DNA from: Candidatus Saccharimonadota bacterium
GTDB lineage: Archaea; Nanobdellota; Nanobdellia; Pacearchaeales; GW2011-AR1
Direction: 5' to 3'
DNA length: 32,000 nt
Assembly: GCA_017609205.1 (NCBI GenBank)
Contig: JAFCEL010000001.1
Span: forward strand, 150,001 to 182,000
In this document: one piece after another, positions 3,145 to 32,000 of the stretch
How the letters are laid out: every line of letters begins with the position of its first letter
Position numbering within the stretch: position 1 is the first letter of the stretch
Position numbers and translations under genes: made by a program
The notes under the pieces: generated by a model
The model's input: only the letters and a program-made list of their open reading frames with translations
Told to the model about the DNA's origin: nothing
Databases searched by the model: none

Positions 3145-5511
3145 TTATTCTTTTCTTTTTTTATATTCTTCTATCCTCTCCTTATTTTTAGGGCATTCTG
3201 GATTAAAACAAAAAATCCACGGCTTCTTGCCTCTTGAAATTCTCTTTAGCATCGGAAAACCACATTCCTCACAAAATTTTTCTGTTTTTTTAATAACCCC
3301 GTTAGGTGGAAGAGAATAAGTATTTGTGCATTCAGGGTATTTATCACAACTTACGAATTGCCTCTTATTTTTTCTTGAATAGTTTATCATTAATTTTCCT
3401 TTTTTACAAACAGGACAGTCGTTAAGTTTATTCTCTTCCCTTTGCTGCTCAATAAATTCGTCCTGTGCTTCAATAAGTTCTTCACCTATCTCTTTCTCAT
3501 GCTTCTCAAAGTCCTCGATGATTGTTGTGATTATCCTTTTTGCTCGCTCTATAATCTTATTCTTCTTAATCTCAAAGTCCTTCTTAGATTTCTCGATGGA
3601 TTCCATATCCTTCTCAAAATTCCTAGTCAGATTTTCATCAATGATTATAGGAGAGTATTTTTCAAGGGTTGTAATAAGAGACATTCCAATAGGGGTGGCT
3701 TCAATAGATTTTTCCTTAATATAACCCCTATCATAGAGAGTTTCTAAAATCGCGGAGCGTGTTGCTTTTGTTCCGAGATTTCTTTTTTCAAGTTCAGAAA
3801 CTATGGAAGCCGGAGAATATCTTTTTGGTGGCTTGGTCTCTTTTTCCTCAACTCTCGAATCAACGATTTTCACTTTTCCATTTAAATCAGGAATCTCTTC
3901 TTCCTGAAGTTTAGAGGGATAAAATTCCAGCCACGCTCTTTTCTTGATAGCAGAACCTCTTTTGACAAAATCCTTATCCTCAACAGAAATCTTTATCCTC
4001 TTATTTTCAATAATTGCATCTTCACAAAACAAAGCCAAAAATCTCTTAACAATTAATTCGTAGATTTTCTCCTCTTCACCTGACAAAATCTGCTTCTCTC
4101 CTGTAGGATAAATTGACGGATGAGCAGGATCAGATTTTTTCCCTTCAAGAGGTTTATCTCTCACCATCAAATGCCCAACATTGTATTCTTTAGCAAGTTT
4201 CTCTTTTATAGATCTATAATTAACTGAATCAGGTAATTTCTGGGAAGAAGTTCTTGGATAGGATATTAATCCTGCAAGATAAAGGGATTGAGCGATTTGT
4301 AAAGTTCTTGAAGGAGTGATACCATAAAATTTGTAAGCTTCTGTCTGAAGGGTAGTTAAATTAAAAGGTGTTTGAGGAGAGAGTCTTTGTTCTTTCTTTT
4401 CTGTAATGGCCTCGCCTTCTCTCCCAACAAGATTCTCAAACTGAACCAACTCTTTTTTATCAAAAATATCCTTAACATATTTTAATTCTAATTTATGCGA
4501 TTTTTCTGTAATGAAAACCTGCCAATAAGGTTGTGGCTTAAAAGCACGGATTTCTCTTTCTTTTTTAACAATTAAATTTAAAGCAGGACCCTGAACTCTT
4601 CCTATGGACATTATCTTAAATCTTCCAACAGATTTTATTGAATTCATCAACGCTCTTGATAAATTTATTCCATAAAACCAATCAAGATAATGCCTTGTCT
4701 CTCCTGCAATTGCCTGATTCCAAAAGATGCTCTTAGATTTCTTTTCATAAGAATCATTTAATTCCTTAGAAGTCAAGGTTGAAAATTTCATTCTATTAGC
4801 ATCCTCCTGCCCACATAAATAGCGAACAATATTCATACCAATAACCTCTCCTTCCACATCAAAGTCAGTTGCAATAGTTAAATTTCCTGCATTTTTTGCC
4901 AATTTTAAAATCGCATCATAATATCTTTTTGTAAAATCATTTTTTCTTACAAGATAATTGGGAACCCATTTAATATCAAATATAGGAATATCAGAACCAC
5001 GAACATTTTGGCTAAGAGTGAATAAATGCCCAACAGCACAAGCAACAAGGATTTTCCTCCCTTCCCTGTCTACTTCATAATAAGAAATTTTATTGAGAGA
5101 TTTCTGTGAAGCTTTTCCTAAAGCATTAGCAATCTTCGAAGCTGCTTGAGGTTTTTCTGTAATGATTAATTCGTATCCTTCTTTTTTAAGAGAAATCTTA
5201 GGAGGAGAGTATTCTTTCACTTTTTTGTTTTTTGTATTCTTTCTGGCTGTCTTTTTTCTCCGGAATATTCTTGATTTTTTCTGAACAATCTTCTCAAGAG
5301 ATTTTCTCTCTGGTCTTTTATATTCCTTTTCTACAACTTTCTTAACATCACTCTTTCTATCCTTAACATGAATTTCAACAGGTTCTAAGAAATCTTTTTC
5401 AAGATCTTTCTCTTCCTTCTCAATAGTGTGTTTTAGATTACTTTCATCAACAGGAAAATATTCTTCTACGACTTTTTCTTGTTTTGATTTGACTTTCCTC
5501 TTACGTAGCAT
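3145..5511 (-). CDS. topA: DNA topoisomerase, type IA, with C-terminal zinc ribbons and a K/E-rich N-terminal extension
   Basis: Toprim motifs ELIITEKPQAA and ATDFDVEGEVIG. Active-site tyrosine context GLISYPRTSSQKL. C-terminal CPVCKKGK...CDKYPEC and CEECGFP...CFNPEC zinc ribbons. TATA-like CTATAAAAA lies about 25-30 nt upstream of the ATG on the minus strand. Confidence 0.93.
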   Translation of the reverse strand: MLRKRKVKSKQEKVVEEYFPVDESNLKHTIEKEEKDLEKDFLEPVEIHVKDRKSDVKKVVEKEYKRPERKSLEKIVQKKSRIFRRKKTARKNTKNKKVKEYSPPKISLKKEGYELIITEKPQAASKIANALGKASQKSLNKISYYEVDREGRKILVACAVGHLFTLSQNVRGSDIPIFDIKWVPNYLVRKNDFTKRYYDAILKLAKNAGNLTIATDFDVEGEVIGMNIVRYLCGQEDANRMKFSTLTSKELNDSYEKKSKSIFWNQAIAGETRHYLDWFYGINLSRALMNSIKSVGRFKIMSIGRVQGPALNLIVKKEREIRAFKPQPYWQVFITEKSHKLELKYVKDIFDKKELVQFENLVGREGEAITEKKEQRLSPQTPFNLTTLQTEAYKFYGITPSRTLQIAQSLYLAGLISYPRTSSQKLPDSVNYRSIKEKLAKEYNVGHLMVRDKPLEGKKSDPAHPSIYPTGEKQILSGEEEKIYELIVKRFLALFCEDAIIENKRIKISVEDKDFVKRGSAIKKRAWLEFYPSKLQEEEIPDLNGKVKIVDSRVEEKETKPPKRYSPASIVSELEKRNLGTKATRSAILETLYDRGYIKEKSIEATPIGMSLITTLEKYSPIIIDENLTRNFEKDMESIEKSKKDFEIKKNKIIERAKRIITTIIEDFEKHEKEIGEELIEAQDEFIEQQREENKLNDCPVCKKGKLMINYSRKNKRQFVSCDKYPECTNTYSLPPNGVIKKTEKFCEECGFPMLKRISRGKKPWIFCFNPECPKNKERIEEYKKRKE

Positions 5512-5544
5512 ATTCTTACTTAGAAGGAGGGTTTTTATAGATTT

Positions 5545-6156
5545 TTAAATCTCAATAATCTTTCCCTTCTTTCCAACATTAATAACTCTTGTCTTTCCAA
5601 TTTTCTCTTCAATTCCTTCTGCCTCATGAATATGTCCTGATAAAAGAATATCTGGTTTAAATTCCTTAATCGCTTTTCTAATTCCCTTACTCCCCCTAAA
5701 CCCAGAGAACTCTGCCTTTGACTTAAATGGATGCATATGCGTTACCATAATCTTTTTTTTAAGATTTTTAATTCTGCTATGAGCCTTTTCTAATGTTCTA
5801 AAAAATTCTTTCTCAGACATAGGAGACATGCCAAAATCAGCTCCGCCTGCCCCAAAGACTCCAACGTCATCTTTTACAAAAGAATAACCATGAAGATTAG
5901 TTGCCTCGTCATAGATTTGGCTCAAAAAATCAATAGTTGCAAGAGACTCATGATTTCCATGCAAAAGTAATACAGGTTTCTTAAGGCTAGCAAAAGGTCC
6001 AATAAGATTCTCTGTTGAATTTTCAAAAAGAGTTAAATCCCCAGCAAGGATAATCATATCAACGTTTTCTTTTTTCGCCATTTCAGATAGGCGCTTAACA
6101 AGTCCTGTATCTCCATGAATATCCCCTGCTGCAAGGATTTTTGTTTTTTTAACCAT
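5545..6156 (-). CDS. metallophosphoesterase (calcineurin-like, MJ0936/YfcE type)
   Basis: ILAAGDIHGD, ILAGDL, GNHE and GHIH motifs. Start moved to the internal Met (MVKKTKIL) because TTTATATTAAAATA lies about 25 nt upstream of it, and the longer track ORF adds a non-conserved, promoter-overlapping extension. Confidence 0.85.
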   Translation of the reverse strand: MVKKTKILAAGDIHGDTGLVKRLSEMAKKENVDMIILAGDLTLFENSTENLIGPFASLKKPVLLLHGNHESLATIDFLSQIYDEATNLHGYSFVKDDVGVFGAGGADFGMSPMSEKEFFRTLEKAHSRIKNLKKKIMVTHMHPFKSKAEFSGFRGSKGIRKAIKEFKPDILLSGHIHEAEGIEEKIGKTRVINVGKKGKIIEI

Positions 6157-6269
6157 AAAAAAGAAATATTTTAATATAAATAAAACCTTCGTATTTTTAC
6201 TACTATATCCTAGAAAATATATATTACAAAACATTTAAAAGGTCACTACTTTCTGAATATATAGATAAA

Positions 6270-6551
6270 ATGCCTCGATCTAAGATGAAAGACAATTTTG
6301 ATATCTTTTTTAGAAGAAAGCCTGCAATGATGCTGGTTTCTCTTAAAAAGAACTCACGGATGAGGTATGGTAGTGTTTTAGCAAAAGAAGTTGACTGCAC
6401 ATACAGTCACGCAGTTAAAATCTTGCAAACACTTGAGAACTTAAAACTAGTTCTTTTTGAGAAAAGGGGGAGGATAAAAGTAATCAAGTTGACAAAGAAA
6501 GGTCAAGAAGTTGCAGACGCTATAGAAAACATTCAGAGATTGATTAAATAA
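6270..6551 (+). CDS. small winged helix-turn-helix DNA-binding protein (MarR/ArsR-like)
   Basis: 93 aa. YGSVLAKEVDCTYSHAVKILQTLENLKLVLFEKRGRIKVIKLTKKG has the helix-turn-helix plus wing pattern. Confidence 0.55.
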   Translation: MPRSKMKDNFDIFFRRKPAMMLVSLKKNSRMRYGSVLAKEVDCTYSHAVKILQTLENLKLVLFEKRGRIKVIKLTKKGQEVADAIENIQRLIK

Positions 6552-6718
6552 CTACCTGCCCTGAAAGAATTGAATGACGTATAGATAGTTAGCAGCAGGT
6601 CATACTTATTAAGAATTTTCTAATTTAATTACAGAAGTTTAAGATAACAACAATTATTTAAACTTCTTAAAATCTAATATTAAAGTATTATATACAACCA
6701 TTCTGACTACAAAGAAAT

Positions 6719-6793
6719 GGTCCCGTAGCTCAGCCTGGTTAGAGCACCAGACTCTTAATCTGGGTGTCGGGGGTTCAAATCCCTCCGGGGCCA
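6719..6793 (+). tRNA. tRNA-Lys (anticodon CUU), no intron
   Basis: Hand-drawn cloverleaf. Acceptor GGUCCCG/CGGGGCC. D arm GCUC-AGCCUGGUUA-GAGC. Anticodon arm CCAGA-CUCUUAA-UCUGG. V loop GUGUC. T arm GGGGG-UUCAAAU-CCCUC. Discriminator A, CCA not encoded. TTATATA box about 28 nt upstream. Confidence 0.93.
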
Positions 6794-6878
6794 TTCTGAT
6801 TTAAACAGAAGAAGATTATTCCTTCTGAAAACCACAATCCTAAACTTTATTAATACAGACTCTTTTCTTTTGTAAAAG

Positions 6879-8501
6879 ATGGTGAACGCAGCATTAATTG
6901 CAATCATAGGAATTTTGTTTTTAATTATAAATTACTTTTTGTATGGAAGATTTGTTGAAAGGAAAATAAAGCCTACAAATAAAAAAACTCCAGCTCATAC
7001 GAATAGAGATAAAACTGATTATTATCCTGCAAATAAGTTTTTTCTATTTGGACATCATTTTGCATCAATAGCAGGAGCAGGTCCAATCATTGGTCCAATT
7101 CTCGCTGTCTCATATTTTGGATGGTTCTTCGTCGCTGTTTGGATAATTCTTGGAACGATTTTCATTGGAGCCGTTCATGACTATCTCTCCCTTATGATCT
7201 CTGTTAGAAATAAGGGACAAGGAATCTCAGAAATAACAGAGAAAACCTTGAATAAGAAATCAGGAAAGATTTTTGCATTCATGATTTACCTCACTCTTGT
7301 TCTGATAATTTCTGTTTTTTCTATATCTGCTGCAGAGAGCATAATTTTTCAACCAAGTTTAGTGATTCCTATAATTGCAATCTCAATAATAGCCTTTGCT
7401 CTTGGTCTAGCAGTTTATAAATTTAAGAAAAATGCTTTAATCTCTACGATAATTGCATTGATTTTCGCCTTCTTCTTTATGTATCTTGGCTACAAAATTC
7501 CAATAACACTACCATTCTCATTAGCAACTCAAAAATTTATATGGACAACAATTTTTATTTCCTACGGGGCAATTGCATCATTAATACCTGTCTGGATATT
7601 TCTGCAACCTAGAGATTATATCAGCTCAATCCAATTAATCTTATTTCTCTTTCTCGGATTTGTATCTATTATGATAACAAAACCAGTATTAAATTCTCCG
7701 ATGATAATAAGAGGAAATTTTCCTATTTGGCCAATTTTATTTATAACAGTAGCATGTGGTGCAGTTTCTGGGTTTCACTCCCTTGTTGCTTCAGGAACAA
7801 CTTCAAAACAACTTGCAAAAGAAAAAGATGGGAAATTCGTTGGATATGGCGGAATGATAGCAGAAGGGCTTTTAGCATTGCTTGTCTTATTAATGGTATC
7901 GTCATTAAAATGGGATTCAGGAAATTTAAACTTTATAGATTCCCTAAATAAAAACTGGGTTGTAGCATTCGGAAACGGATTCGCAAACATGGTTTCACAA
8001 ACCGGGATATCTTTCTTAACATTCTCAATAGTGAGTTTAATTGGAGTATTCATGGTAAACCAATTCATTTTAACTTCTTTAGACACTTCAACAAGACTCT
8101 CAAGAATTGTTATCTCAGAAACATTAAGAACAAAAATTTTCAAAAATAAATTAATAGGTGTTTTGGTAACAATAATTCCCGCATATATTATTGCAATAAC
8201 AAGTGTATACTCAAATATCTGGAGACTATTCGGAAGTGCAAATCAATTAATTGCAGCAGTTGCTCTAATCACAATTTCTGCATATTTCATAGAACACAAA
8301 AAAAAGATAAAATTTTTGATCATTCCTACAATATTTATGATAGTTACGACAATCTCTGCAATTGCTTATGGATTATTCAACGACAAAGGATACATAGCAA
8401 CAGGAAATTGGATTCTAACAATTATTTCCTTTGCACTCCTCATACTAGCCTTAGTCATTTCTTATGAGGGATTTCAGATAATAAAAAATGGTAAAAAATA
8501 A
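6879..8501 (+). CDS. cstA: carbon starvation protein CstA-family transporter
   Basis: Polytopic membrane protein with the CstA signature FLFGHHFASIAGAGPIIGPILA near the N-terminus. 540 aa. Confidence 0.85.
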   Translation: MVNAALIAIIGILFLIINYFLYGRFVERKIKPTNKKTPAHTNRDKTDYYPANKFFLFGHHFASIAGAGPIIGPILAVSYFGWFFVAVWIILGTIFIGAVHDYLSLMISVRNKGQGISEITEKTLNKKSGKIFAFMIYLTLVLIISVFSISAAESIIFQPSLVIPIIAISIIAFALGLAVYKFKKNALISTIIALIFAFFFMYLGYKIPITLPFSLATQKFIWTTIFISYGAIASLIPVWIFLQPRDYISSIQLILFLFLGFVSIMITKPVLNSPMIIRGNFPIWPILFITVACGAVSGFHSLVASGTTSKQLAKEKDGKFVGYGGMIAEGLLALLVLLMVSSLKWDSGNLNFIDSLNKNWVVAFGNGFANMVSQTGISFLTFSIVSLIGVFMVNQFILTSLDTSTRLSRIVISETLRTKIFKNKLIGVLVTIIPAYIIAITSVYSNIWRLFGSANQLIAAVALITISAYFIEHKKKIKFLIIPTIFMIVTTISAIAYGLFNDKGYIATGNWILTIISFALLILALVISYEGFQIIKNGKK

Positions 8502-10654: not shown

Positions 10655-10771
10655 GAGCCTGTAGCTCAGCCAGGTTAGAGCACTGCTCTGATAAACTAAA
10701 CTCGTTTAGTTTGCTAAACCTGTTTAGATTTAGTAAGGCAGGGGTCCGCGGTTCAAATCCGCGCAGGCTCA
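10655..10771 (+). tRNA. tRNA-Ile (anticodon GAU) with 42-nt intron at 37/38
   Basis: Acceptor GAGCCUG/CAGGCUC. D arm GCUC-AGCCAGGUUA-GAGC. Anticodon stem CUGCU/GGCAG. Loop CUGAUA|intron|A. V loop GGGUC. T arm CGCGG-UUCAAAU-CCGCG. Discriminator A. Intron about 10694-10735, boundary ambiguous by 1-2 A residues. Confidence 0.9.
10694..10735 (+). other. tRNA-Ile intron (bulge-helix-bulge type, canonical position)
   Basis: Exon CUGA (10688-10691) can pair with intron UUAG (10730-10733) as the central 4-bp helix, flanked by UAA(A) and UAA bulges. The rest forms a rod from CUAAAC/GUUUAG units. Confidence 0.75.
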
Positions 10772-21044: not shown

Positions 21045-21160
21045 GTCCCGGTAGCTCAGTTGGTAGAGCGCATGGCTGTTAAATTCAACTTGTTGAATAA
21101 CCACAAAACGTCTGTTTTGCAGGAACCATGGTGTCGTAGGTTCGAGTCCTACCCGGGACG
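21045..21160 (+). tRNA. tRNA-Asn (anticodon GUU) with 43-nt intron at 37/38
   Basis: Acceptor GUCCCGG/CCGGGAC. D arm GCUC-AGUUGGUA-GAGC. Anticodon stem CAUGG/CCAUG. Loop CUGUUA|intron|A. V loop GUGUC. T arm GUAGG-UUCGAGU-CCUAC. Discriminator G. ATTTTAAAAGG box about 29 nt upstream. Confidence 0.9.
21082..21124 (+). other. tRNA-Asn intron
   Basis: Exon CUG(U) 21076-21079 can pair with intron (G)CAG 21119-21122, flanked by 3-nt bulges UAA and GAA. Two internal hairpins: AUUCAA/UUGAAU (21083-21098) and CAAAAC/GUUUUG (21104-21119). Confidence 0.7.
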
Positions 21161-28560: not shown

Positions 28561-29985
28561 ATGACTATATCAAACATAATTCATAGTGTTAGAAATATAA
28601 TGAGAAAAGACCCTGGAGTGGATGGAGATGCTCAGAGAATTTCCCAAATGACATGGATGATATTTCTTAAAGTATTTGATGCTATGGAAGAAGAAAAAGA
28701 AGCAGAAAATTCAAAATATAAATCTCCTTTGCCTGAAGAAATAAGATGGAGAAATTGGGCATCAAATGAAGAAGGAATAACAGGAGATGAATTATTAGAT
28801 TTTGTGAATGATCAAGTTTTCGAGGGAATTAAAAAATTAGATGTGAAAAATAGTAAAAAGGCTCAGATAGTAAAACAAGTTTTTGAAGATACTTATAATT
28901 ATATGAAAAGCGGGGTCTTGATGAGGCAAGTTATTAATGAAATAAATAAAATTGATTTCACTAGTTCTGAAGACAGGCATTTGTTTAATGATATTTATGA
29001 GACAATTTTAAGAGAACTTCAGAGTGCTGGTTCTGCAGGAGAGTTTTATACCCCAAGAGCAGTCACGCAATTTATAGTTGATATGGTAAATCCTAAATTA
29101 GGAGAGATTTTATTAGATCCTGCATGTGGAACAGGGGGGTTTTTAGTTTCTGCCTTAGAAAATATGAGAAAAGAAGTTGATAATATTGAAGAATTACAAA
29201 GATTAGGAAAAAATATCAGAGGAATAGAGAAAAAACCCTTGCCTCATTTGTTATGCATGACTAATTTGATGTTACATGATATTGATGAGCCAAATATTAA
29301 ACATGATAATTCATTGTCAAAACCATTAAGAGAGTATTCTTCTAAGGACATGGTTGATGTAGTTGTGACAAATCCCCCTTTTGGAGGAGCAGAAGAAGAA
29401 GGTATTGAAAATAATTTCCCAACTGAATTTAAAACAAGAGAAACAGCAGATTTGTTTTTAGTTCTTATTATGAAACTTTTAAGAGAAGAAGGAAGATGCG
29501 GGATTGTTTTGCCTGATGGATTTTTATTTGGAGAGGGTGTTAAAACAAGAATAAAAGAGAAATTATTAACTGAATTTAATCTTCATACAATAGTTAGACT
29601 TCCTAATGGTGTTTTTAACCCATATACTGGAATTAGAACAAATCTACTTTTCTTTGAAAAAGGAAAACAAACAAAGGAAATTTGGTATTTTGAGCATCCC
29701 TTGCCAAAAGGATATAAAACATACAACAAAAGCAAACCGATTAACATTAGAGAATTTGATTTGGAAAAAGAATGGTGGAACGATAGAGAAAATGAAAAAT
29801 TTAAGCAATATGCTTGGAAAGTTTCTATTGAAGAAATCAAAAAGAGAAATTATAATTTAGATATTAACAATCCTAACGGAAAAAAAGAGGAAGAAAATTT
29901 GAGTTCTAAGGAGATTCTGGAGAAGTTAGAGAAGAGTTTGGAGAGTAGTAAGGAGTTAATTGAGAAGCTTAAGGAGGAGGTTTGA
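28561..29985 (+). CDS. hsdM: type I restriction-modification system, methyltransferase subunit M
   Basis: N-terminal HsdM_N-like IMRKDPGVDGDAQRISQMTWMIFLKVFD. AdoMet motif I LDPACGTGGFL. Motif IV VVTNPPFGG. 474 aa. Confidence 0.93.
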   Translation: MTISNIIHSVRNIMRKDPGVDGDAQRISQMTWMIFLKVFDAMEEEKEAENSKYKSPLPEEIRWRNWASNEEGITGDELLDFVNDQVFEGIKKLDVKNSKKAQIVKQVFEDTYNYMKSGVLMRQVINEINKIDFTSSEDRHLFNDIYETILRELQSAGSAGEFYTPRAVTQFIVDMVNPKLGEILLDPACGTGGFLVSALENMRKEVDNIEELQRLGKNIRGIEKKPLPHLLCMTNLMLHDIDEPNIKHDNSLSKPLREYSSKDMVDVVVTNPPFGGAEEEGIENNFPTEFKTRETADLFLVLIMKLLREEGRCGIVLPDGFLFGEGVKTRIKEKLLTEFNLHTIVRLPNGVFNPYTGIRTNLLFFEKGKQTKEIWYFEHPLPKGYKTYNKSKPINIREFDLEKEWWNDRENEKFKQYAWKVSIEEIKKRNYNLDINNPNGKKEEENLSSKEILEKLEKSLESSKELIEKLKEEV

Positions 29986-29990
29986 AAATG
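29971..29990 (+). promoter_or_regulatory. strong Shine-Dalgarno (AAGGAGGAGG) plus ATG at the 3' end of hsdM, feeding only a 16-codon ORF
   Basis: The SD lies inside the last hsdM codons, 7 nt before ATG 29988. That ORF (MRNIDTLLNIKRSKNE) stops at 30036-30038. Confidence 0.45.
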
Positions 29991-30034
29991 AGAAATATTG
30001 ATACATTACTAAATATAAAGAGATCAAAAAATGA

Positions 30035-30117
30035 ATAGGGTAAGTGCGTCCGTCAATCCTACTAACCGCATCAAGAGCAAGCTCCAGCACGGGGTTCGTC
30101 AGGTCGCGTTTCCCTAT
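30035..30117 (+). ncRNA. candidate structured small RNA / cis element (GC-rich rod-like hairpin), function unknown
   Basis: About 56% G+C by hand count (45/80) in AT-rich surroundings. Nested pairings: 30035-40/30112-17, 30042-48/30105-11, 30050-51/30102-03, 30055-60/30091-96, and apical 30075-77/30082-84. TATA-like AAATATAAA at 30011-30019. A U-rich tract follows. Confidence 0.4.
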
Positions 30118-30201
30118 GTATTATTTACTACTCACTACTATTTAAATTTTATGACTATGGATATTTTAAATAAATTTTGAATATGTTGAGGGGGTGTGAA
30201 T

Positions 30202-31044
30202 ATGGTAAGATTTATCAATAAAAATTTAAAGTCTCATTCTTATACCTCAAGTGAACCTTTAAATTCTTTAATGGACAACATTGTTCAATCCGAAATAGCT
30301 AAATTATTGGCATTTCACTTTAGAGATTTTGGGAAGAAATCTAGTACTGATCTTACTCATTTGCTTCAGAAAACAACAATACAATTAGGATTATCTTCTC
30401 CAAGGGAAGTGGATTTCTGGTTTGGATCTGGGCAAATAAGCGTTAAAGAGTTTTTTTTGTTAATTGAACTTATCCTTGAGACTTATGTAGAAAGCAATAA
30501 AAGATGGTTAGAAGAATCATACATTCTAGATTTTGTAAATGATATTAATGATTTTTTTCTTATCCATAAAGTTCCCTTATCAATTAGATATTTTTCAAAT
30601 AAAAAAGAATTTTATGTTGAAAAAATAATTTCTCCTGAAATTAGTAAAGAAATCAAAAAAACTTTAGAAGATTTCTCAAAGGAGGAAAAAGTGTTTGAGG
30701 ATTTTAAGGAGGCTATTAAAAAATATAGTTCTGGAAATTATGAAGGTTCTATTGAAAAATGTTGTGTTTCAATTGAAGATTATCTCTGCATTCTTTTAGA
30801 GAAAAAAACATGCTCTAGTATTGACAAGTATTATAAAGATATTGCTAAGAGGTTAAAAATTCCTGAAGATTTAAATGATAGATTCACAAATATCATACAT
30901 TACATCCATAAACACAGATCTCATCAAAACCATGGATCTATTGAGAAGAAGGTAATTGAAGATATTGAATTGATTAATGAAATTATTATTGGATTTACAA
31001 TGACTATTTTAAATTATTTGAAAAAGAAAAATGAAAAAAGTTAA
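30202..31044 (+). CDS. AbiJ-like abortive-infection protein with C-terminal HEPN (Abi_C-type) domain
   Basis: C-terminal DFKEAIKKYSSGNYEGSIEKCCVSIEDYLCILLEKK helix and HKHRSHQNHG (R-x4-H-G) fit the HEPN Rx4-6H motif. The middle segment ILDFVNDINDFFLIHKVPLSIRYF...YVEKIISPEISKEIKKTLE resembles AbiJ N-terminal domains. Start at ATG 30202 (the track start at 30196 is GTG), 5 nt after SD GAGGGGGTG. Confidence 0.6.
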   Translation: MVRFINKNLKSHSYTSSEPLNSLMDNIVQSEIAKLLAFHFRDFGKKSSTDLTHLLQKTTIQLGLSSPREVDFWFGSGQISVKEFFLLIELILETYVESNKRWLEESYILDFVNDINDFFLIHKVPLSIRYFSNKKEFYVEKIISPEISKEIKKTLEDFSKEEKVFEDFKEAIKKYSSGNYEGSIEKCCVSIEDYLCILLEKKTCSSIDKYYKDIAKRLKIPEDLNDRFTNIIHYIHKHRSHQNHGSIEKKVIEDIELINEIIIGFTMTILNYLKKKNEKS

Positions 31045-31282
31045 AGAGAAAACTGAAGATCTGCCAGATTGGATTAAATTAATCTTTAAATGGGTTTTTC
31101 TTTTAGCAGGAGTTCCTAGTCTCTCCTATGTTTTTTTATGGGCCTCTGTTCAAAGTGCTTTTGAAGCTGCAACAACAGGTTGGCAAATTTTTCTGGGATT
31201 TAGTCTTTTTAGTATTTTTCTGGGATATATTTATTTTTCAATTAAATATTTAGTCGAAGAAACTATTGGTTATTTTAAATGA
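31031..31282 (+). CDS. small 2-TM membrane protein (hypothetical)
   Basis: 83 aa. Two hydrophobic helices (WIKLIFKWVFLLAGVPSLSYVFLWA and WQIFLGFSLFSIFLGYIYFSI). Overlaps the HEPN gene by 14 nt and the hsdS start by ATGA. Confidence 0.55.
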   Translation: MKKVKEKTEDLPDWIKLIFKWVFLLAGVPSLSYVFLWASVQSAFEAATTGWQIFLGFSLFSIFLGYIYFSIKYLVEETIGYFK

Positions 31283-32000
31283 AAATTAATTTTATTCCTC
31301 TAACTTTTATTAAATCTCAAGAAGATTTGAATTTCCAAATAAGAAATACCTTAATAATGAAGAAGATTTTAGAAAAGTTTAGTGATGAAAAAGAATTAAA
31401 AGAACTTCTAAAAAAAACACAATATGGATTTACTACTTCAGCAAAAAAGGAAGGGAGATATAAATTTCTTAGAATTACTGATTTAAAAAATGGAAAAGTT
31501 GATTGGGAGAATGTTCCTTCTTGTGATGGAGATTGTAATAATTATTTATTAAAAGGAGGGGATATTGTGATAGCAAGAACAGGAAATAATAAAAGTTTTC
31601 TTATTAAAGATGTTCCAAATAATGCTATTTTTGCAAGTTATCTTATAAAATTAGAAGTTAATAGAAAAGTTTTACTTCCCGAATATCTATATATGTTTTT
31701 GAATAGTTATTTGTTTTGGAGCCAAGTTTTAAAAATGCAAACAGGGACTACTCTTTCTAATGTTAATGGAGAAAAGTTGAAAAAATTAAGGATTCCTTAT
31801 TGTCCAATTAAAGAGCAAGAAAGGATAGTTAAAGGAAATTTTGATAAAAACCTTAAAGAAGTAATAAAAAAGGTTGAAGATTTTTTAATTAGTAAAGAAA
31901 AATTGGCATTAAATTCTCAAAAAGACCATGAACTCTTAAAGAAACTCAAACAATCAATCCTCCAAGAAGCTGTTCAGGGAAAACTCGTTCCGCAAGATCC
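31279..32000 (+). CDS. hsdS: type I restriction-modification system, specificity subunit S (3' end lies outside the window)
   Basis: Not in the ORF track because it runs off the window. My translation has no stop through nt 32000. TRD pattern YGFTTSA...YKFLRITDLKNGKVDW...GDIVIARTG...ASYLIKL...LSNVNGEKLKKLRIPYCPIKEQERIV, then the conserved spacer LKQSILQEAVQGKLVPQD. Confidence 0.85.
   Translation, partial: MKINFIPLTFIKSQEDLNFQIRNTLIMKKILEKFSDEKELKELLKKTQYGFTTSAKKEGRYKFLRITDLKNGKVDWENVPSCDGDCNNYLLKGGDIVIARTGNNKSFLIKDVPNNAIFASYLIKLEVNRKVLLPEYLYMFLNSYLFWSQVLKMQTGTTLSNVNGEKLKKLRIPYCPIKEQERIVKGNFDKNLKEVIKKVEDFLISKEKLALNSQKDHELLKKLKQSILQEAVQGKLVPQD

Follow-up and report, generated by a model that had tools for sequence, protein, structure and literature searches.

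The 32,000-nt window, the whole stretch of DNA analysed here, ends in a type I restriction-modification (R-M) locus whose genes and features are collected in Table 1. The hsdM product matches the Pfam models N6_Mtase (2.5e-76) and HsdM_N (8e-15) and the PADLOC type I methyltransferase model (MTase_I, 4e-206), and it is 87% identical to the HsdM proteins of two other loci, L019 and L016. The window end cuts hsdS, which in full length encodes 481 aa on L001, a contig from the same strain. On that contig a convergent hsdR (788 aa; ResIII/DEAD and EcoEI_R_C) lies 2.4 kb past the hsdS stop, completing in one locus a type I set of 474, 481 and 788 aa. A preliminary description had allowed that hsdS might be a decayed pseudogene; the gene is intact on L001, and together with the convergent hsdR it indicates that the layout of the locus is not debris. 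The same description placed hsdM and hsdS on one strand and 1.3 kb apart, and all of its coordinates are correct. In order, the gap contains a 216-nt spacer, a 280-aa ORF and an 83-aa ORF, TM83. As had been claimed, TM83 shares 14 nt with the 280-aa ORF and meets the hsdS start as ATGA.

Table 1. Features of the hsdM-hsdS region, in window positions
Feature	Positions	Strand	Basis
hsdM, type I R-M methyltransferase subunit, 474 aa	28561-29985	+	Pfam, PADLOC
216-nt spacer, lineage-specific insertion separating hsdM from the AbiJ-like gene	29986-30201		locus comparison
GC-rich structured motif	30032-30121	+	G+C content, covariation, covariance model R1
direct repeat copy 1, 13 nt, TGAATAGGGTAAG	30032-30044	+	repeat search (family D4)
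direct repeat copy 2, TGAATATGGTAAG, includes the AbiJ-like ATG	30197-30209	+	repeat search (family D4)
AbiJ-like gene, 280 aa	30202-31044	+	homologs, presence/absence as one unit
N-terminal alpha+beta domain, AbiJ_NTD4-like, residues 1-150	30202-30651	+	hhalign A1/A2, AF2
C-terminal HEPN (Abi_C-like) domain, residues 151-280	30652-31041	+	domain model, Foldseek
Rx4H motif codons, R239-S-H-Q-N-H244	30916-30933	+	invariance in alignment
TM83, 83 aa, two predicted transmembrane segments	31031-31282	+	homologs, hydrophobicity
conserved cassette tail ATGAAAAAAGTTAAA	31031-31045	+	comparison of downstream starts
hsdS, 5' part only (window end cuts gene)	31279-32000	+	Pfam Methylase_S 1.1e-14

The 280-aa protein has 39 homologs (39-100% identity) from DPANN-type hosts labelled Woesearchaeota and Nanoarchaeota, and a profile of the family found only 19 matches among 1.84 billion cluster representatives. 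The start of the gene, ATGGTAAG, is conserved across homologous loci; use of an alternative GTG (30196) would lengthen the product to 282 aa, but the homologs all begin MVRF. It had been proposed from the sequence that the C-terminal half is an Abi_C/HEPN domain and that the middle resembles AbiJ N-terminal domains. A Pfam scan of the window protein and 38 close homologs at E<=1 yielded no match to Abi_C or AbiJ_NTD models, and comparison of the 280-aa protein with PADLOC, NCBIfam and PHROGs yielded none either. Precomputed Abi_C matches, flagged weak or faint, exist for 26 of the 39 homologs. A profile search reaches distant relatives (P0053, P0054, P0047 and others) at E-values of 1e-13 to 1e-4. 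Among these relatives (group A2), some score 38.9-48.6 bits against Pfam AbiJ_NTD4 (cut-off 34; best 1.6e-12) and 21.7-23.6 bits against Abi_C (cut-off 24). When aligned with hhalign, the profiles of the window family (A1) and of A2 match end to end over 275 columns (99.7%, E 5e-26), and the N-terminal part of the window protein thereby aligns with AbiJ_NTD4 proteins.

In the AF2 model, the N-terminal part consists of helices plus a beta-hairpin at residues 126-141. The C-terminal domain is modelled as an all-alpha, up-and-down helical bundle (pLDDT 89.8, pTM 0.84), for which the best Foldseek matches are 2hsb (E 0.04), 1ufb (TM 0.68), HepT, 1o3u, 1wol, SO_3166 and the sacsin HEPN domain. Six of the first 10 PDB matches are annotated as HEPN domains or HepT toxins, and HEPN structures dominate likewise when the whole-protein model is searched. 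These matches have probabilities of up to 1.00, TM-scores of 0.5-0.69 and rmsd values of 3.3-4.5 A, at modest E-values (0.04-0.6). HepT/MNT and minimal HEPN toxins (7bxo, 5yep, 1ufb, 2hsb, 1o3u, 1wol) are thus the closest structures to the C-terminal domain, over about 125 residues. Unlike HepT, the window protein has no MNT nucleotidyltransferase partner; sequence identity to these toxins is 6-20%, and its 150-residue N-terminal domain is extra.

The motif HKHRSHQNHG is present as described, and the expectation that it is conserved was borne out: R239 and H244, along with G245, are invariant in all 39 homologs. In the distant group bearing AbiJ_NTD4 and Abi_C, the histidine is invariant and the arginine nearly so, with a spacing of x6-7. 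The Rx4H loop is the region of lowest confidence in the whole-protein and domain models alike. Given the end-to-end profile alignment, the invariant Rx4H motif and structural matches headed by HEPN proteins, we assign the 280-aa protein to the AbiJ family as a predicted divergent HEPN member. Both proposed domains are supported by profile-profile alignment and, for the C-terminal one, by motif and fold, and not by a direct Pfam match to Abi_C or AbiJ_NTD.

A sister locus, L019, whose HsdM is 87% and hsdS DNA 75% identical to that of the window, reads hsdM, TM83, hsdS and has no AbiJ-like gene. Relative to L019, the window carries positions 29984-31041 extra. By this comparison, the AbiJ-like gene appears as an embedded cassette, an indel between otherwise corresponding loci. 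TM83, with hydrophobic segments at residues 17-40 and 53-71, had been counted as part of the insert. Its three homologs (67-72% identity) are all encoded in the hsdM-hsdS interval of loci that lack the AbiJ-like gene, and their native N termini differ from that in the window (MPNPKEK in L019, MAKPKEE in L022). Judged from these loci, TM83 is resident in the R-M operon lineage as a small membrane component of its own, outside the insert.

The first residues of TM83 in the window come from the cassette itself. The tail ATGAAAAAAGTTAAA gives the next gene its start codon and first residues, MKKVK, and an identical tail with an MKKVK start precedes a different gene in each of three loci: TM83 (window), hsdS (L015) and an unrelated ORF of 204 aa (L016). 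Of 15 close-family loci, 11 have a downstream gene that overlaps the cassette end or directly adjoins it. We considered whether the HEPN protein and the downstream small membrane protein form a two-gene module of sensor and membrane effector or anchor. The next gene's product has predicted transmembrane segments in 11 of the 12 loci where that gene is not hsdS, and the transmembrane gene mostly overlaps the cassette end, as such a module would predict. Small transmembrane ORFs are, however, common in such genomes, and these downstream proteins share no homology. In L003, L011 and L015, hsdS follows directly and the transmembrane gene is absent, and TM83 in turn occurs without the HEPN gene. 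We regard the module as improbable.

Linkage to R-M or defence genes, raised in the preliminary description as a point to check, is strong: in 13 of the 15 close-family loci, the AbiJ-like gene has DNA methylase or restriction genes of type I, type III or another kind as neighbors. Upstream of it, hsdM is directly adjacent in six, and two further copies are in type I loci, two in type III-like mod/res loci and three next to other DNA methylases. The hsdM-hsdS position seen in the window recurs in L003, L010, L011, L015 and L016. Copies of the cassette at 50-60% identity occupy type III-like loci (L002, L007) or adjoin methylase genes of C5 or TaqI_C type (L006, L004), and one such copy, in L005, has no R-M genes in view. 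Distant members in L012 and L013 adjoin integrases.

Such placement recalls PrrC in EcoprrI, where a HEPN-type nuclease gene is likewise carried inside an hsdMSR locus and co-oriented with it, as a presumed second line of defence. The prrC gene sits between hsdS and hsdR, and the AbiJ-like gene between hsdM and hsdS. By analogy, and in line with the preliminary description, which suggested a back-up layer sensing inactivation of the R-M complex, the AbiJ-like protein could be held inactive by HsdM/HsdS or the full R-M complex and fire when a viral anti-restriction protein disables that complex. The hsdM stop lies only 0-4 nt ahead of the AbiJ-like ATG in five other loci, including L010, L016, L003 and L011 (HsdM of the first two is 84-87% identical to that of the window), and the gene is co-oriented with the downstream R-M genes and overlaps them; apart from PrrC/EcoprrI, a general HEPN-R-M proposal offers precedent (PMC3710099). 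But PrrC has an N-terminal ABC-ATPase, and Pfam, NCBIfam and PADLOC reveal no ATPase or P-loop in the 280-aa protein. Moreover, PrrC is found almost exclusively in type I loci, whereas the cassette also resides in type III-like, C5/TaqI_C-methylase and R-M-free contexts. These varied contexts make a sensor specific to HsdMS unlikely. In the window, finally, the 216-nt insertion uncouples the AbiJ-like gene from hsdM. Control of this kind by the R-M complex is in our view unlikely, though it is the most serious of the alternatives.

We favor the reading that the gene is a divergent archaeal AbiJ one-gene cassette, which probably serves as a second abortive-infection layer co-inherited and co-expressed with R-M. 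The N-terminal AbiJ_NTD4-type domain would be the sensor or inhibitor, and the C-terminal Abi_C-type HEPN domain, with its Rx4H site, the presumed RNase. The cassette would be self-contained and slot in just downstream of a DNA methyltransferase gene, and the start codon in its 3' tail would keep TM83 and hsdS translationally coupled. Before infection the RNase would be kept latent, and the sensing of infection would most probably fall to the protein's own N-terminal domain, not to HsdM/HsdS; once triggered, the RNase would cut cellular or viral RNA and so give the predicted defence phenotype. A small-genome, DPANN-type archaeon thus carries a predicted suicide RNase gene inside an intact type I system, near a small membrane protein and a structured RNA-like element. 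The tight positional coupling to methylase genes weighs somewhat against this autonomous view, as it could mean a functional tie to R-M that the view ignores. Alternatively, the gene might be a passenger, hitch-hiking or in decay, that at present serves no function. The rarity of the family, with its 19 profile matches, and the spacer insertion, a sign of a junction still evolving, fit a passenger, but the ORF is intact throughout the alignment of 39 homologs, 31 columns including the catalytic motif are invariant, the coupling tail is conserved and the neighboring R-M genes are intact. We consider a functionless passenger highly unlikely.

The HEPN families include AbiJ, and the HEPN clades linked to R-M systems number at least 16 (Anantharaman et al. 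2013, PMC3710099). The preliminary description had called the arrangement uncharacterised. HEPN genes in R-M operons, AbiJ included, were described in 2013 (PMC3710099), and a preprint documents embedding in type I R-M as a general phenomenon (bioRxiv 10.1101/2024.01.29.577857), so that an AbiJ-like gene in an R-M operon falls within an established style of layered virus defence, of which the archaeal example is a new member. AbiJ is bacterial in the 2013 table, and AbiJ proteins of R-M operons mostly lack the N-terminal domain (PMC3710099), whereas the window family is archaeal, from DPANN-type hosts, and retains it. AbiJ family members (Abi_C PF14355, AbiJ_NTD1-5; AbiJ_NTD4 PF18863) have the same build of an alpha+beta N-terminal domain and HEPN with Rx4-6H; the window protein is too divergent for a direct Pfam match and is homologous at the profile level. 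Lactococcal AbiJ, the only member tested, confers phage resistance by a mechanism that is not known (PMC13064643). It is of similar size (282 versus 280 aa), and the likeness rests on size, domain build and family profiles. The 'guilt-by-embedding' families of Payne et al. 2024 (HEC-08, PDC) are likewise single-gene candidate defences inside a larger immune operon. HEC-08 defence requires the histidine of its Rx4-6H motif, but HEC-08, with DUF3644 and zinc ribbons, belongs to a HEPN family other than that of the window protein; the passages of the preprint consulted make no mention of a start-codon-donating tail.

The spacer ahead of the cassette has no copy in any other locus by blastn. It contains the GC-rich element of the preliminary description, whose high G+C content we confirm. 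The motif core (30052-30101) reads GTCAATCCTACTAAC..GGGTTCGTCAGG; the stem GTGCGTCC/GGTCGCGT closes it, with ATAGGG/CCCTAT as an outer stem. At 54% G+C against 32% for the window, it ranks in the top 0.1% of 83-nt segments, with tRNA-Lys alone higher. No Rfam covariance model rose above noise in the window at E<=10, and the homologous site in L024 gave no match at E<=0.1. Three relatives on IMG/VR virus contigs have conserved loops and stems that are different yet complementary: the closing stem has compensatory changes in five of eight pairs, and 94% of cells pair versus 31-54% in slid controls. Covariance model R1 scores the window motif at 78.8 bits.

The motif lies 80 nt upstream of the HEPN gene, on the same strand, with covariation-supported structure, an order reminiscent of ToxIN/AbiQ, AbiF and AbiV, in which an RNase toxin (HEPN or other) follows a structured non-coding RNA. 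HEPN toxins with RNA antitoxins are known, AbiV and AbiF among them (PMC13064643), and virus-contig copies could act as decoys if the RNA were an antitoxin or regulator, as in type III toxin-antitoxin systems. The antitoxin RNAs of those systems, however, are tandem repeats co-conserved with the toxin, whereas the window motif is single-copy, with no tandem repeats found. The earlier tie between element and HEPN gene also fails on distribution: R1 finds the motif in none of 16 other AbiJ-like loci, including standalone loci with long upstream regions, and the virus copies neighbor a tRNA array, primase and DNA methylases, with no HEPN gene nearby. We judge antitoxin-type control very improbable. 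The comparisons mark the element as a rare structured motif with covarying stems, not partnered with the HEPN gene; it is probably a later insertion independent of the AbiJ-like cassette.

It is hardly more probable that the motif, with its core GUCAAUCCUACUAAC...GGGUUCGUCAGG, represents a new small structured RNA class common to viruses and a host defence locus, which would modulate either the embedded HEPN RNase or the R-M operon (as antitoxin, decoy or processing signal, for instance), the virus copies being counter-defence mimics. Were that so, R-M system, AbiJ-type RNase and virus-related RNA would engage in a three-way interplay in DPANN archaea. The two 13-nt direct repeat copies agree at 12 of 13 positions, with a rough estimate of about 0.4 such pairs expected by chance in this AT-rich 400 nt; as a duplicated junction or target site, the pair is only suggestive.

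Between hsdM and hsdS, the window carries a spacer, a 280-aa gene (the AbiJ-like gene, or cassette) and a gene for an 83-aa protein with two predicted transmembrane segments (TM83), in the layout that the preliminary description had given. That description had allowed that hsdS might be decayed and the arrangement only debris. A 9.5-kb JGI contig from the same strain (L001), which extends past the window end, holds a full-length hsdS of 481 aa and an intact, convergent hsdR of 788 aa, 2.4 kb past the hsdS stop; because hsdS is complete and hsdR intact, the layout is not debris. An archaeal host fits the window's G+C content of ~32% and its tRNA genes with long introns, and the records bearing homologs of the studied genes carry Woesearchaeota or Nanoarchaeota labels.

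Coordinates of the features in the window and in the comparison loci
Feature	Locus	Coordinates	Details
hsdM	window	28561-29985	Pfam N6_Mtase 2.5e-76, HsdM_N 8e-15; PADLOC type I MTase 4e-206
Spacer	window		216 nt, between hsdM and 280-aa ORF
280-aa ORF	window	30202-31044	
83-aa ORF (TM83)	window	31031-31282	14-nt overlap with 280-aa ORF
hsdS	window	from 31279	ATGA overlap with 83-aa ORF; Methylase_S 1.1e-14
TM83 homolog	L019	6001-6252	
TM83 homolog	L021	4499-4750	
TM83 homolog	L022	453-707	
Collinear block, upstream	window / L019	28522-29983 / 4537-5998	83%
Stretch absent from L019	window	29984-31041	
Collinear block, downstream	window / L019	31042-32000 / 6012-6973	75%
Conserved cassette tail	window	31021-31045	AAAAAGAAAAATGAAAAAAGTTAA
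Conserved cassette tail	L015	7819-7844	
Conserved cassette tail	L016	7816-7841	
Conserved cassette tail	L014	3471-3496	
GC-rich motif	window	30032-30121	closing stem GTGCGTCC / GGTCGCGT
GC-rich motif	L024	3978-4056	closing stem GGCAAGCCCC / GGGGCTTGCC
GC-rich motif	L056	3461-3541	closing stem GAGCACCC / GGGTGCTC
GC-rich motif	L059	10002-10082 (minus strand)	closing stem CTCTCC / GGTGAG
TATA-like string	window	30011-30020	AAATATAAAG
T-rich tract	window	30118-30150	
Second TATA-like string	window	30164-30172	TTTTAAATA
204-aa ORF	L016	7827-8441	RNLVAH motif
DUF4145 protein gene	L014	5331-5819	HEPN family
GmrSD_N protein gene	L018	3923-5722	
175-aa ORF	L001	4479-5006	overlaps hsdS stop (ATGA)
Small genes between hsdS and hsdR	L001	5088-6897	
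tRNA gene with intron	window	10655-10771	
tRNA gene with intron	window	21045-21160	
tRNA-Lys	window	6718-6794	ARAGORN

Direct scans of the 280-aa protein against Pfam, PADLOC, NCBIfam and PHROGs returned nothing, none of the 39 family members matched Abi_C at E<=1 in our own Pfam scan, and searching PDB sequences with the family profile turned up noise only. Precomputed database tables list PF14355 on 26 of the 39 members, with flags that, where shown, are weak or faint. We counted the direct scans as failed, and the family assignment therefore leans on profile-profile evidence. The close family comprises 39 clusters at 39-100% identity, and the profile search found just 19 matches among 1.84 billion cluster representatives. 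The weaker matches are ~300-aa proteins, several of which carry the Pfam domains AbiJ_NTD4 (up to 1.6e-12, 48.6 bits against a cut-off of 34) and Abi_C (21.7-23.6 bits, cut-off 24), and one of which carries DUF7014. Compared profile to profile, the close family and this distant group align end to end over 275 columns (99.7% probability, E 5e-26). The AbiJ/Abi_C relationship proposed at the outset thus stands at the profile level but not at Pfam's own threshold.

Every close-family member keeps R239, H244 and G245 (HRSHQNHG), along with an EDYxC motif in the long helix before Rx4H; the distant group has an invariant equivalent histidine and a nearly invariant arginine, at x6-7 spacing. AlphaFold2 models the whole protein (pLDDT 83) as a helical N-terminal part with a beta-hairpin followed by a helical C-terminal part, and the C-terminal 130 residues alone reach a pLDDT of 89.8 and a pTM of 0.84. 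For both models, Foldseek ranks HEPN proteins first in the PDB, among them AF_0298 (2hsb, E 0.04), TT1696 (1ufb, TM 0.68, rmsd 3.3 A), HepT toxins, TM0613, ST0689, SO_3166 and the sacsin HEPN domain, and also retrieves lactococcal AbiA, which bears a C-terminal HEPN domain. The modest E-values are typical of small helical bundles, and the ranking is consistent. The HEPN motif and fold that had been suspected in this protein are both found, and at the profile level we identify it as a divergent AbiJ-family HEPN protein.

We recovered 16 further distinct loci and annotated their neighbours. Among 15 close-family loci, six have hsdM directly upstream of the cassette (window, L003, L010, L011, L015 and L016) and two are type I loci with a different gene order (L014 and L018). 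Type III-like loci with an N6_N4 methylase and ResIII account for two more (L002 and L007), while in three the cassette adjoins or lies near another DNA methylase: a TaqI_C-domain protein (L004), a C5 methylase (L006) or an Eco57I-type enzyme 3.3 kb off (L017). No R-M gene is in view in 2/15 (L005, with housekeeping neighbours, and L008/L009, on short contigs). The most distant members (L012 and L013, ~40% identity) stand alone beside integrase genes. The association of the AbiJ-like cassette with DNA methylases and R-M systems is strong; that it is a passenger there without current function we regard as very improbable.

That HEPN genes occur in R-M operons is textbook knowledge: 16 or more HEPN clades have been tied to R-M systems, AbiJ among them, with PrrC as the paradigm (PMC3710099), and genes embedded in type I R-M loci have been catalogued in their thousands (bioRxiv 10.1101/2024.01.29.577857). 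A PrrC-like role, in which the HEPN protein would guard its R-M system, is unlikely, given that the same cassette occurs across varied R-M types and in R-M-free contexts and that the ATPase domain is absent.

Loci with and without the cassette could be compared directly. The HsdM proteins of L019 and L021 are 87% identical to that of the window, and L019 is collinear with the window on either side of the AbiJ-like gene. The stretch between has no counterpart in the alignment to L019, and the spacer and AbiJ-like gene therefore represent a 1058-bp presence/absence difference in an otherwise collinear operon. The three related locus states (hsdM/TM83/hsdS, hsdM/AbiJ-like/hsdS, and AbiJ-like gene and TM83 together) form a clean natural test case for whether an embedded HEPN gene needs its host R-M system.

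Given the family, motif, fold, indel and linkage, we judge it reasonably probable that the gene is an AbiJ-type single-gene abortive-infection module, a latent HEPN RNase embedded behind a methylase gene. The putative RNase would stay inactive, with its own NTD4 domain as the most probable restraint, until a trigger released it, with abortive infection as the expected phenotype; latency through the N-terminal domain has been proposed for AbiJ-type architectures (PMC3710099). Its position behind the methylase gene would favour co-inheritance and co-expression, as in 'guilt-by-embedding' systems. For AbiJ itself there is no mechanistic knowledge to date (PMC13064643).

Other defence-type genes occur at the same R-M loci. 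L014 encodes a DUF4145 protein and L018 a GmrSD_N protein, and the 204-aa ORF of L016, which has no Pfam match, may be a second HEPN.

The junctions suggest how such an insertion could be tolerated. At the other loci with hsdM upstream, the hsdM stop lies 0-4 nt from the cassette ATG (ATGGTNAGATT). The lysine-rich C-terminus of the cassette is encoded by the conserved tail ...AAAAAGAAAAATGAAAAAAGTTAA, whose out-of-frame ATG is the start codon of the following gene. Because the tail holds this codon, unrelated downstream products share an MKKVK start: MKKVKEK for TM83 in the window, MKKVKLGE for hsdS in L015 and MKKVKDK for the unrelated 204-aa ORF in L016. Native TM83 at cassette-free loci begins MPNPKEK (L019) or MAKPKEE (L022). 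In 11 of 15 loci, the next gene overlaps the cassette or lies directly against it. From these sequences we read the cassette as preserving the translational coupling of the operon that it interrupts, and such start-codon donation would provide a concrete explanation for insertion into operons without polar damage.

TM83 yielded nothing useful from Pfam, PADLOC, NCBIfam or PHROGs. It has three homologs of 83-84 aa and 67-72% identity, each flanked by hsdM and hsdS, which it abuts or overlaps, at a locus lacking the AbiJ-like gene. TM83 was initially taken as part of the insert; since its homologs occupy this position without the AbiJ-like gene in 3/3 contexts, it belongs instead to the R-M operon lineage, of which (a DPANN type I lineage) it is a conserved component independent of the AbiJ-like gene. 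In 12 loci the cassette is followed by a gene other than hsdS, and in 11 of these the product has at least one predicted transmembrane segment. These proteins (L002, L004-L010, L014, L017 and L018) span 73-353 aa and are non-homologous to one another. Small transmembrane ORFs are common in such genomes, and we treat the pattern as an unexplained tendency. That HEPN and transmembrane proteins function as a pair, as this tendency might suggest, seems to us decidedly improbable.

The GC-rich element in the spacer truly stands out in composition: at 54% G+C it ranks in the top 0.1% of 83-nt windows. Its single-sequence folding is marginal over shuffles and not significant (z = -1.67 on the plus strand, -1.06 on the minus). 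Rfam searches, at gathering thresholds and at E<=10, matched it to no family, and it was not recognised as a tRNA or tmRNA. Judged by eye, its core motifs do not fit a minus-strand hammerhead, a tRNA T-arm or split tRNA, a C/D or H/ACA sRNA, a group II intron end, a CRISPR repeat or known riboswitch aptamers. A minus-strand coding reading (LTNP...VSRIDG) is ruled out by stops that break the frame in the virus contig L024 and by covarying flanking stems.

Pattern scans of IMG/VR recovered three true relatives, on virus contigs L024, L056 and L059. The 77-nt exact pattern had zero matches there, and no additional member emerged from a third degenerate pattern. Chance accounted for a 19-mer match in a high-GC coding region (L023), for 36 of 39 gapped-pattern matches, in coding regions without flanking stems, and for 10/10 extra 16-mer matches. 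Only chance matches came from blastn against GenBank phages and PLSDB plasmids, and a covariance model found no further copy in ~380 kb of collected loci. All four copies of the motif (~60-80 nt) share GTCAATCCTACTAAC, then 18-27 variable nt, then GGGTTCGTCAGG. Their closing stems vary in sequence and keep complementarity: across the four sequences, compensatory changes occur in 5/8 closing-stem pairs, and 94% of cells pair, versus 31-54% with the partner slid by 1-3 columns. G-U pairs favour the strand shown. Outside the motif, the three virus contigs lack similarity to the window or to each other. The L024 copy lies beside a 7-tRNA array and a primase, the L056 copy 47 nt upstream of, and divergent from, a C5 DNA methylase, and the L059 copy amid small unknown ORFs. 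A structured-RNA (or ssDNA) motif is a credible but unproven reading of these four sequences, and its occurrence in virus contigs and an archaeal locus gives RNA biology a lead. The L056 contig was recovered from IMG sample 3300033144, a number near that of the sample behind the window's own JGI contig (3300033148).

The element is absent beside every other AbiJ-like gene examined, and is accordingly a secondary insertion in the window lineage. This runs against the earlier view of it as a partner of the HEPN gene, and we give hardly any credence to an RNA antitoxin. A 13-nt direct repeat (12/13 identical) flanks 165 nt and itself takes in the AbiJ-like ATG; it could be a target-site duplication, though it is statistically unconvincing and possibly chance. 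A TATA-like string lies ~25 nt before the element and a T-rich tract after it; both are compatible with an independent small RNA gene, and such strings are common at 32% G+C. About 30 nt ahead of the AbiJ-like ATG is a second TATA-like string, through which the insertion may have supplied the downstream genes with a promoter of their own. The promoter and terminator scan used bacterial models and is uninformative for an archaeal host.

Recognised defence systems are reported to be scarce in DPANN archaea (PMC12988326). Because Pfam, PADLOC, NCBIfam and PHROGs fail to detect the AbiJ-like family, defence inventories of DPANN miss it, and its presence in their R-M operons marks an annotation gap. 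Novelty here is limited to a divergent archaeal AbiJ clade missed by current defence finders, a cassette tail that donates a start codon, a small membrane protein conserved at the hsdM-hsdS junction, and a rare structured motif common to virus contigs and the window; this motif could be the sole part that proves really new.

Elsewhere in the window, two tRNA genes contain introns of ~43-44 nt; Rfam detects both and ARAGORN, which reports only tRNA-Lys, detects neither. Just past the window end, the 175-aa ORF on L001 carries a hydrophobic segment at each end, separated by a long charged region that is probably a coiled coil; a PHROGs scan gave no family match and no Pfam family is on record. 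The position after hsdS is elsewhere taken by differing uncharacterised genes: 315 and 137 aa in L011, AF_1680 in L010 and DUF4238 in L019. Between hsdS and the convergent hsdR on L001 lie several small genes, encoding a DUF3892 protein, a weak SNase-like protein, a 52-aa Cys-rich ORF and a protein with HFX_2341_N/Csa3_N-like matches, which may be further defence-island cargo.
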